Origin: Escherichia coli
GTDB taxonomy: Bacteria > Pseudomonadota > Gammaproteobacteria > Enterobacterales > Enterobacteriaceae
Length of the DNA stretch: 64,000 nucleotides
Assembly (NCBI RefSeq): GCF_003334405.1
Contig: NZ_QOWM01000001.1
Direction: 5' to 3' (one strand)
In this document: positions 3,549-6,126 of the stretch, piece after piece
How the letters are laid out: every line of letters starts with the position of its first letter
Position numbering within the stretch: position 1 is the first letter of the stretch
Program-made: the position numbers

Positions 3549-6126
3549 TAACATCCTGTTATCAGGGCGATTTTCGCCCTGATTCTCTTATGTTCCCTTT
3601 GTAATAATTCATTATTTTTATCATTTATCCTATAGCATTCATGGCGATTATCGCTAAACTATGGCGACTTAAAATTATTTCGTCCGTTAGGGTAATGATG
3701 AGAGTAGAAAATAATAATGTTTCTGGGCAAAACCATGACCCGGAACAGATTGATTTGATTGATTTACTGGTGCTGTTGTGGCGCGGCAAGATGACAATTA
3801 TCATCTCTGTCATTGTCGCTATTGCCCTGGCTATAGGGTATTTGGCCGTTGCCAAAGAAAAGTGGACTTCCACAGCTATCGTTACTCAACCTGATGTGGG
3901 GCAAATCGCTGGTTATACCAACGCGATGAATGTGATCTACGGATCGGCTGTACCGAAAGTCTCCGACATTCAGGCTTCACTTATCGGACGTTACAGCACT
4001 GCATTCTCAGCATTAGCTGAAACGCTGGATAACCAGGAAGAAGCAGAAAAGCTGACCATTGAGCCTACCGTTAAAAATCAGTCATTACCTTTAGCGGTGT
4101 CTTATGTTGGTGAAACACCTGAAGGTGCGCAGAAACAGCTGGCGCAGTATATCCAGCAAGTTGACGACCAGGTAAATGAAGAACTGGAAAAAGACCTGAA
4201 AGATAACATCGCGCTGCGTATGAAAAACTTGCAGGATTCTCTGAAAACTCAGGAAGTAGTTGCGCAGGAGCAGAAAGATCTGCGTATCCGTCAGATTCAG
4301 GAAGCGTTGCAGTATGCGAATCAGGCGCAGGTGACAAAGCCACAGGTTCAGCAGACTGAAGATGTGACGCAAGATACGTTGTTCCTTTTGGGGAGCGAAG
4401 CGCTGGAGTCGATGATTAAGCATGAGGCGACCCGTCCGTTGGTGTTCTCACCAAACTACTATCAGACTCGTCAAAACCTGCTGGATATCGAAAGCTTAAA
4501 AGTTGATGATCTTGATATTCATGCTTACCGTTATGTGATGAAACCGACGTTACCTATTCGTCGCGATAGTCCGAAAAAGGCAATTACCTTGATTCTGGCG
4601 GTGCTGCTGGGCGGCATGGTTGGCGCGGGGATTGTGCTGGGGCGTAACGCTCTGCGTAATTACAACGCGAAGTAATCTTTTCGGTTTTAAAGAAAATGGG
4701 CAGGGTGGTGACACCTTGCCCGTTTTTTTTTGCCGGATGCGACAACAATATCGCATCCGCTTACCCCGCAACTCACTGATGCCGTTTACGCAGGTTCTCA
4801 ATCACCGTCGTTAAATCCAGGTCCTGATCCTGCAACAGTACCAGCAGGTGATACATCAAATCAGATGCCTCGTTGGTTAGTTCAACGCGGTCATGTACCG
4901 TTGCTGCCAGTGCGGTTTCCACGCCTTCTTCGCCCACTTTCTGCGCAATGCGCTTGGTGCCGCTGGCATACAGTTTGGCGGTGTAGGAGGTTTCCGGGTC
5001 GGCAGATTTACGTTCGGCGAGCAGTTGTTCCAGTTGGTACAGAAACAGCCACTGGTGAGCGGTGTCGCCGAAGCAGCTGCTGGTGCCTTTGTGGCAGGTT
5101 GGTCCGATGGGATTCGCCAGGACCAGTAACGTGTCGTTGTCGCAGTCCGGCGCAATACTCACTACGTTGAGGAAATTGCCCGACGTTTCGCCTTTGGTCC
5201 ACAGTCGCTGTTTAGTGCGCGAGAAGAAGGTGACTTTGCCGCTTTCGATGGTTTTGTCTAAGGCTTCCGGGTTCATGTAGCCCAGCATTAACACTTCGCC
5301 AGATACCGCGTGTTGCACAATCACCGGCATCAGTCCGTCGGTTTTTTCCCAGTCCAGTTGTTCTGTTAACATATCCTGATCTCCACGCCCTGTGTTGCCA
5401 GGTACGCTTTTAATTCACCAATATTGATAATTTGTTTGTGGAATACGGAAGCTGCCAGCGCACCGTCAACGTCGGCATCGCGGAAGGCTTCGAGGAAGTG
5501 TTCCATGGTGCCCGCGCCACCGGAGGCAATCAGCGGGACGTGGCAAACTTCACGCACTTTTTTCAGTTGATCGAGGTCGTAACCGTTACGCACGCCGTCC
5601 TGATTCATCATGTTGAGGACGATTTCTCCGGCACCGCGTTTTTGCACTTCCTGTACCCAGTCGAGCGTTTCCCACTGAGTGACGCGGGTGCGGCTTTCAT
5701 CGCCGGTATATTGATTCACATGATATTTACCGGTTTCAGCGTCGTACCAGGTATCAATGCCGACCACAATGCATTGCACGCCAAAGCGATCCGCCAGGCG
5801 AGTGATTAATGTCGGCTCCGCCAGCGCAGGGGAGTTGATGGAAATTTTATCCGCGCCAAAGGAAAGAATTTTCGCGGCATCTTCCAGAGACTTAATCCCA
5901 CCCGCCACACAGAACGGAATGTCGATCACTTCCGCCACGCGAGATACCCAGCTTTTATCTACCACACGGCCATCGCTGGAAGCGGTGATATCGTAGAACA
6001 CCAGTTCGTCTGCACCTTCTTCAGCGTAGCGTTTTGCCAGCGGTACAATATCGCCAATGATTTCATGGTTGCGAAACTGTACGCCTTTCACCACCTGACC
6101 ATCACGAACGTCGAGACACGGAATTA

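Follow-up and report, generated by a model that had tools for sequence, protein, structure and literature searches.

A rare, inherited hisIE allele with a 12-bp in-frame deletion at the recombining border of the O-antigen region of Escherichia coli

Results

The his operon and the hisF/hisI junction

The DNA analysed here, which we call the window, is a stretch of 64,000 nucleotides from Escherichia coli (NCBI RefSeq assembly GCF_003334405.1, contig NZ_QOWM01000001.1), and it is 100% identical to contig QOWM01000001.1 of GCA_003334405.1 (L008) over 15,372 nt. On its minus strand, between positions 4773 and 11833, the his genes follow one another collinearly from hisG to hisIE, and all eight of them are of normal length. 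The last gene of the operon, hisIE (4773..5372, minus), comprises 199 codons and a stop, as given by the ORF list and the translation, and its product is the bifunctional phosphoribosyl-AMP cyclohydrolase / phosphoribosyl-ATP diphosphatase, here in the form of a short-N-terminus allele. The neighbouring hisF (5366..6142, minus; 258 aa) is intact according to the ORF list and the annotation of homologous loci. From the ORF coordinates and the sequence, the two genes overlap by the 7 nt ATGTTAA (5366..5372, minus), with the hisI ATG at 5372-5370 and the hisF TAA at 5368-5366. This overlap is common to the window, the annotated K-12 derivative and strain PE15, and the gene order from hisG to hisIE, overlap included, matches the layout in annotated genomes. 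In K-12, where HisIE has 203 aa and is likewise encoded by the last gene of hisLGDCBHAFI, the gene, its position, the 7-nt overlap with hisF and the two protein domains are as in the window. Beyond hisIE, the genes wzzB, ugd and gnd lie on the opposite strand. The wzzB ORF, as called mechanically (3641-4675, plus), is 344 aa long; since the WzzB profile match begins at residue 20, the true start is probably at 3698, giving 325 aa, as called in L008.

On the minus strand, positions 5372..5349 read ATG TTA ACA GAA CAA CTG GAC TGG, or MLTEQLDW, which is the start of hisI that the initial annotation had read directly from the window, leaving the strand of the gene unstated. The K-12 derivative MC4100 (L001) has ATG TTA ACA GAA CAA CAA CGT CGC GAA CTG GAC TGG at this place, in agreement with the K-12 N-terminus given in that annotation (MLTEQQRRELDW). 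In the DNA alignment of the window with MC4100, in which PE15 was also included, one sees a clean gap of 12 columns between identical flanks, the K-12 derivative having 12 extra nucleotides, in frame. The missing bases, CAA CGT CGC GAA, correspond to residues Q6, R7, R8 and E9 of K-12 HisIE, and in the protein alignment the window's HisIE is 199 aa long against 203 aa in K-12. Direct reading and both alignments place the deletion junction within 5357..5360 (minus), its position being ambiguous by 3 nt due to the 3-nt AAC microhomology. The repeats bounding the deletion had been described as short GAAC repeats; the GAAC copies of K-12 are actually 15 nt apart, and at the 12-nt offset the repeat is AAC only. 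The location had been given rightly, at the hisI N-terminus next to the hisF stop: the deletion lies just past the hisF/hisI overlap, 6-9 nt downstream of the hisF stop and 13-16 nt after the hisI start codon. As it is downstream of the hisF stop, hisF is unaltered, and the Shine-Dalgarno sequence, the hisI start codon, the hisF stop and the ATGTTAA overlap are all unaffected. The deletion is genuine and in frame, and it is no assembly artefact, because numerous assemblies from NCBI, ENA and Logan contain the same allele independently of one another. As for the description of hisI as an essential gene, it holds where external histidine is absent and not otherwise, since only then is hisI essential.

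Distribution of the short allele in E. coli

A 141-nt query spanning the junction found matches in 5,366 of 5,426 complete E. coli genomes. Among the matches listed, the alignment was gapless in only 3 of the 5,366 genomes, namely PE15, MARGA_3 and PS2Canimalfeces12 (PS2C), which have three different O-antigen clusters, and in the remaining matches listed 141 query bases were aligned with 153 subject bases. The in-frame 12-bp deletion proposed initially is thereby borne out with respect to K-12 and to approximately 99.7% of complete E. coli genomes. In a collection of 15 billion proteins, there are four distinct 199-aa HisIE proteins of E. coli type, found on 73, 89, 107 and 207 contigs; the one on 73 contigs (P0004) is exactly that of the window. 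Of the blocks in the assembly collection, 147 contain a protein identical to the window's, and samples from NCBI, ENA and Logan are represented among them; the protein is already present in NCBI nr (EFZ58246.1, EFK6611589.1 and others). Short hisIE is, in other words, a rare, inherited natural allele that segregates in several E. coli lineages.

Linkage to the O-antigen region

At all eight places returned for the window's protein, the O-antigen genes beyond gnd are the same: a GT2 glycosyltransferase, a 505-aa protein without a Pfam match, a pyruvyl transferase, manB and manC. Between the window and four carriers (L009, L010, L011 and L014), the segment hisIE-wzzB-ugd-gnd shows 0-3 differences per 500 nt, whereas hisG-hisF is about 2-4% different, with up to 23 sites per 500 nt. 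Since hisIE-gnd is nearly identical in carriers whose hisG-hisF has diverged, the short hisIE allele moves by recombination between his backgrounds, together with wzzB-ugd-gnd and the O-antigen block. The breakpoints of the block lie in hisA or hisF. In the window, the block inherited with the short allele, as defined by comparison with other carriers, covers positions 1..5372 and runs from the 3' end of the last O-antigen glycosyltransferase gene through gnd, ugd and wzzB to hisIE. Moreover, positions 40000-64000 are 100% identical to several complete E. coli chromosomes, including L003, which carries a long hisIE and a different O-antigen cluster, of the GDP-fucose type. As the short allele and the adjacent O-antigen block move together, the indel can serve as a handy marker with which to trace recombination at the his-gnd hot spot.

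Several genomes of this comparison also differ in details of the region. In the vicinity of the his operon, L003 has a tsuA/yeeE interrupted by an internal stop (the window copy, at 16461-17519, is intact) and an additional NAD-dependent epimerase gene between wzzB and ugd; the L003 coordinates that differ from the window there are 21478-22536 and 35808-36812. PE15 (L004; 12669-15545) has no wzzB between hisIE and ugd, and its ugd-gnd is 81.8% identical to that of the window. The wzzB of MARGA_3 (L005; 12753-13730) contains an internal stop, and the wzz of L015 (10698-11675) is broken into two ORFs. Finally, L012 (GCA_000188815.2; 6856-7833 and 13383-13886) has an IS1 transposase gene between ugd and gnd and a hisB cut to 325 aa.

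Short HisIE in other genera

Among 205 relatives of the window protein whose sequences were fetched, 54 are of the 199-aa form and 111 of the 203-aa form. A search of species-representative genomes with a degenerate DNA pattern for MLTEQ[LMV]DW found genuine hisIE of this form in 22 such genomes from six genera, namely Kluyvera (several species), Klebsiella (K. pneumoniae, K. indica and K. spallanzanii), Raoultella (three species), Trabulsiella, Yokenella and Pseudocitrobacter, and in no Escherichia representative. A match in an Opitutales MAG (L035) was set aside as due to chance, its translation reaching a stop. Another sequence, L043 (CACSKA010000001.1, 'Chryseobacterium sp. 18061'), carries an enterobacterial hisF-hisIE nearly identical to that of 'Citrobacter sp. 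18056' (L047), and this assembly is probably contaminated or mislabelled. Long-form sequences represent the 90%-identity clusters whose named members are from Salmonella, Citrobacter and Enterobacter, and Buttiauxella and Cedecea are further sources of named HisIE proteins of the long form.

Native short-form HisIE (199 aa, MLTEQLDW[EQ]K...) has the same N-terminal length as the window protein and shares its first 8-16 residues, and the hisIE DNA of Kluyvera (K. ascorbata) is identical to that of the window over 38 nt across the junction. That said, native short-type hisIE genes differ from E. coli alleles at 102-129 of 600 nt, as opposed to 24-41 between E. coli alleles, and their proteins carry correlated substitutions, for example LMPAI[IV]Q, NQEALAKT and VTFY, which the window protein lacks. 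In particular, the window's hisIE is 111-127 of 600 nt away from short-type genes as opposed to 24-27 from E. coli long alleles. It thus resembles the short lineage of Klebsiella, Kluyvera and Raoultella at the indel only, and by descent it does not belong to that lineage.

E. coli strains with an imported short-type hisIE also exist, some of them chimeric (L016-L018) and others with a whole foreign block (L049/L019). They share with the window the locus, the short N-terminus and the position next to the variable O-antigen region, but their alleles are foreign from codon 6 onwards or across the 3' half of the his operon, while the window allele is E. coli-like throughout. The hisIE of L016-L018 (e.g. 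CP181627.1 and CP101010.1) encodes protein P0052, MLTEQMDWQKNAGLMPAIIQ, which occurs in 786 blocks of the collection; these genomes are E. coli-like through hisF and approximately 20% diverged from hisIE codon 6 on, and they have a 1.4-kb stretch without a called gene between hisIE and ugd. In L049 (NZ_CP024147.1, E. coli 14EC033), the hisB-hisIE block is identical to that of L019 and 18-46 sites per 150 nt away from E. coli. The L049/L019 block is a large intergeneric import that includes half of the his operon and ugd-gnd, without wzzB.

The short enzyme compared with its family

Against the NCBIfam HisIE equivalog NF002747, which has a cut-off of 187, the window protein scores 307.6 bits, between the 309.8 of K-12 and the 305.0 of the K. 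pneumoniae type strain. An N-terminal PRA-CH domain (PF01502) and a C-terminal PRA-PH domain (PF01503) are both recorded for the identical protein, and in the window protein the NCBIfam HisI match covers residues 3-111 and the HisE match residues 111-198. Outside the gap, the protein is 98% identical to K-12 HisIE; in addition to Q6, R7, R8 and E9 being missing, it carries the substitutions L46I, F167V and G188D (K-12 numbering), and all family-invariant residues are present. Namely, every column that is invariant across 91 aligned homologues is kept in the window protein, and residues C81, D82, D84, C97, H98 and C104 (K-12 numbering), which correspond to the metal-site residues of the cyclohydrolase in the literature on 1ZPS, are the same in 91 of 91 sequences, the four short E. 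coli alleles included. In the same alignment, columns 7 and 8 of the N-terminus are the most variable, the four residues are missing in 36 of the 91 sequences, and M1, L2, L10, D11, W12 and K14 are conserved. By every criterion that could be tested, the window protein thus classifies, at the level of sequence, as a member of the HisIE family.

The closest solved structure is HisIE of Shigella flexneri (6J22 / 6J2L; E 2e-126). Unlike the window's protein, the one crystallised has the long N-terminus (...RELDWEK...), and the AlphaFold2 model of the long form agrees with this structure. No solved structure of a short-form HisIE was found. In chain A of the S. flexneri crystal, 200 of 202 residues are modelled, and the N-terminal segment is therefore likely ordered there. 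The AlphaFold2 model of the long form has residues 4-9 in a short helix, with a mean pLDDT of 91 for residues 1-10; the short form, predicted from single-sequence input, had a pLDDT of 38.6, and the structural argument uses the long-form model only. According to that model, the deletion would remove about one turn of the N-terminal helix, which precedes the first strand of the cyclohydrolase domain. At the level of RNA, predicted folding over 100-112 nt around the hisF/hisI junction is weak and non-significant in both alleles (z -0.98 and -0.34). Searches of the literature returned no account of this indel, and the paper on the HisIE mechanism does not discuss the N-terminal residues.

Discussion

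Would the loss of four residues be expected to matter for the cell? We consider the short enzyme almost certainly functional and probably close to neutral, since whole genera have exactly this N-terminus, since four diverged E. coli haplotypes have kept the allele intact, and since the NF002747 score falls by only 2 bits while the rest of the his operon is intact. More generally, the four N-terminal residues of enterobacterial HisIE appear to be dispensable, because whole genera do without them. One could argue that the deletion harms HisIE or its translational coupling to hisF, making the carriers histidine auxotrophs or leaky, given that the lost residues belong to a confidently predicted helix and not to a disordered tail, and that the deletion, 13-16 nt past the start codon, is near the coupling site. 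We regard such damage as very unlikely: Klebsiella and other genera have this N-terminus natively, the family score barely changes, the reading frames are intact in four diverged haplotypes and hundreds of contigs, the Shine-Dalgarno sequence, start codon and hisF stop are as they were, and the predicted RNA folding near the start is weak and non-significant with or without the 12 nt. Equally, the designation of the deletion as strain-specific in the initial annotation does not stand. The absence of the allele from K-12 and approximately 99.7% of complete genomes is what one would expect of a recent event private to the window's strain, but three further complete genomes carry the identical deletion, four E. 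coli-type protein alleles have it (73-207 contigs each), the window's own protein recurs in 147 blocks of the assembly collection, and the long parent allele is not on record in that collection, all of which makes a recent, private origin extremely improbable. Taken as a whole, we therefore explain the observations, with good confidence, by a rare, inherited and functional length allele of hisIE that would have originated by one old deletion.

The question of how the short allele arose is best approached through the four E. coli-type alleles. They are 18-41 of 600 sites apart, long alleles being 24-35 apart, and their mutual distance is in the normal E. coli range. Near the gap, they form two haplotype groups, one consisting of the window and PE15 and the other of MARGA_3 and PS2C, and all four have flanks of E. 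coli type, namely GGATATG and ACA on the upstream side and, from the junction on, E. coli bases downstream. The mechanism that we propose is a single old deletion, which would have occurred by replication slippage or microhomology-mediated deletion between AAC repeats (GAAC AAC AAC GTCGCG AAC TGG) in an allele of E. coli type, and which may later have spread by drift, recombination and hitch-hiking with O-antigen exchange. Searches for possible precursors and for similar events bear on its age. In the 15-billion-protein collection, neither the window's protein nor the commonest short protein has a 203-aa counterpart; on the K-12 backbone (at least 1000 contigs), the same collection has no product of a 3, 6, 9, 12 or 15-nt deletion, and on the P0007 backbone (365 contigs), no product of a 3, 9, 12 or 15-nt deletion, the sizes tested there. 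Furthermore, the only entries in the 95-99% identity band of the complete-genome search were the two other carriers of the 12-nt deletion, so that complete genomes contain no alleles with similar flanks that lack 9 or 15 nt. As long counterparts and sporadic deletion products on common backbones are both missing, the allele is likely old rather than sporadic. Altogether, we lean, with modest confidence, towards one old de novo deletion as the origin of the short allele. Against this, a microhomology of 3 nt is weak, the product equals exactly the junction of native short-type genes, E. coli demonstrably imports short-type hisIE, and this repeat showed no other slippage products. A deletion recurring at a hot spot, independently on each of the four haplotype backgrounds, would agree with the two clearly different haplotype groups beside the gap and with the (AAC)3 ... 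AAC repeat structure in the sequence, but it is an improbable origin, as the K-12 and P0007 backbones just mentioned show no 12-nt or other slippage product and the region recombines so intensely that one event can reach several backgrounds. Taken jointly, recurrence and other origins also receive little of our credence.

A more substantial alternative is that the indel came from a foreign short-type hisIE, of Kluyvera, Yokenella or Klebsiella-like origin, that entered together with the O-antigen region, the flanks being subsequently restored to E. coli and the 12-nt gap left behind as a scar. The short start is native in six genera, the Kluyvera DNA equals that of the window over the 38 nt across the junction, and transfer of a Klebsiella O-antigen cluster next to hisI is documented, the clusters adjoining hisI in E. 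coli O8 and O9 having come from Klebsiella (PMC7685785). Moreover, in five complete E. coli genomes (L049) the whole hisB-hisIE block, short start included, is foreign, and six others (L016) have a chimera with E. coli-type sequence through hisF and foreign sequence from codon 6 of hisIE on, its junction being at the same spot as the gap of the window. The hisIE of PE15 adjoins a divergent, foreign ugd-gnd (81.8% identity to the window's) without wzzB, an arrangement shared with the donors, and a gap of four codons is the only one seen, with no other slippage products. E. coli mismatch repair leaves loops longer than approximately 4 nt uncorrected, and for this reason a scar would fit, the flanking mismatches having been recombined or repaired to the E. 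coli state while the 12-nt loop survived. Against import, all four short alleles have E. coli bases within at most 15 nt upstream and, downstream, from the junction itself, donor SNPs beside the gap being found in none of the four within 15 nt upstream or 37 nt downstream. Farther downstream, the variants of MARGA_3 and PS2C (GCA ATA, CTG GAC) match short-type genes in part only, so that their similarity to donor alleles is partial and ambiguous. We also considered a donor 'sandwich' at both ends of the PE15 hisIE and rejected it: only the last few bases, including the TAA stop, are donor-like, and these are too few. Finally, import requires two crossovers at the gap or else a conversion tract no longer than about 65 nt, and by our rough estimate such a tract from a donor that is 15-20% diverged is much rarer than a slippage deletion. 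On balance, an imported indel strikes us as a tentative and somewhat doubtful origin, and its specific form, a recombination scar preserved as a surviving loop, as rather unlikely. That said, the import of short-type hisIE into E. coli, the native junction, the absent slippage products and the weak microhomology are about equally compatible with an imported indel and with a de novo deletion. If the scar were real, indels near the O-antigen locus could be long-lived markers of intergeneric imports, still legible after the foreign SNPs have vanished.

The finding is an ordinary and rare polymorphism at a recombination hot spot, probably neutral in its effect. It matters little as far as the gene, its function and the exact protein sequence are concerned, all of which are already public.

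Other features of the window

Two further regions of the window deserve a brief description. At 46383-54439 (minus), a yeeJ-like gene for an inverse-autotransporter adhesin is divided into at least four ORFs (201, 199, 1233 and 955 aa), all of which match intimin/IatC-type profiles below the full-length cut-offs; in identical chromosomes, this region is annotated as several 'Ig-like domain-containing' proteins, and the gene is probably a frameshifted pseudogene. At 24511-25886 (plus), there are two truncated transposase ORFs, the first of the ISL3 family, covering profile positions 1-215 of 370, and the second with a weak IS21-family match below the cut-off; this segment is unlike the CP4-44-like remnant in the otherwise nearly identical chromosome L003.
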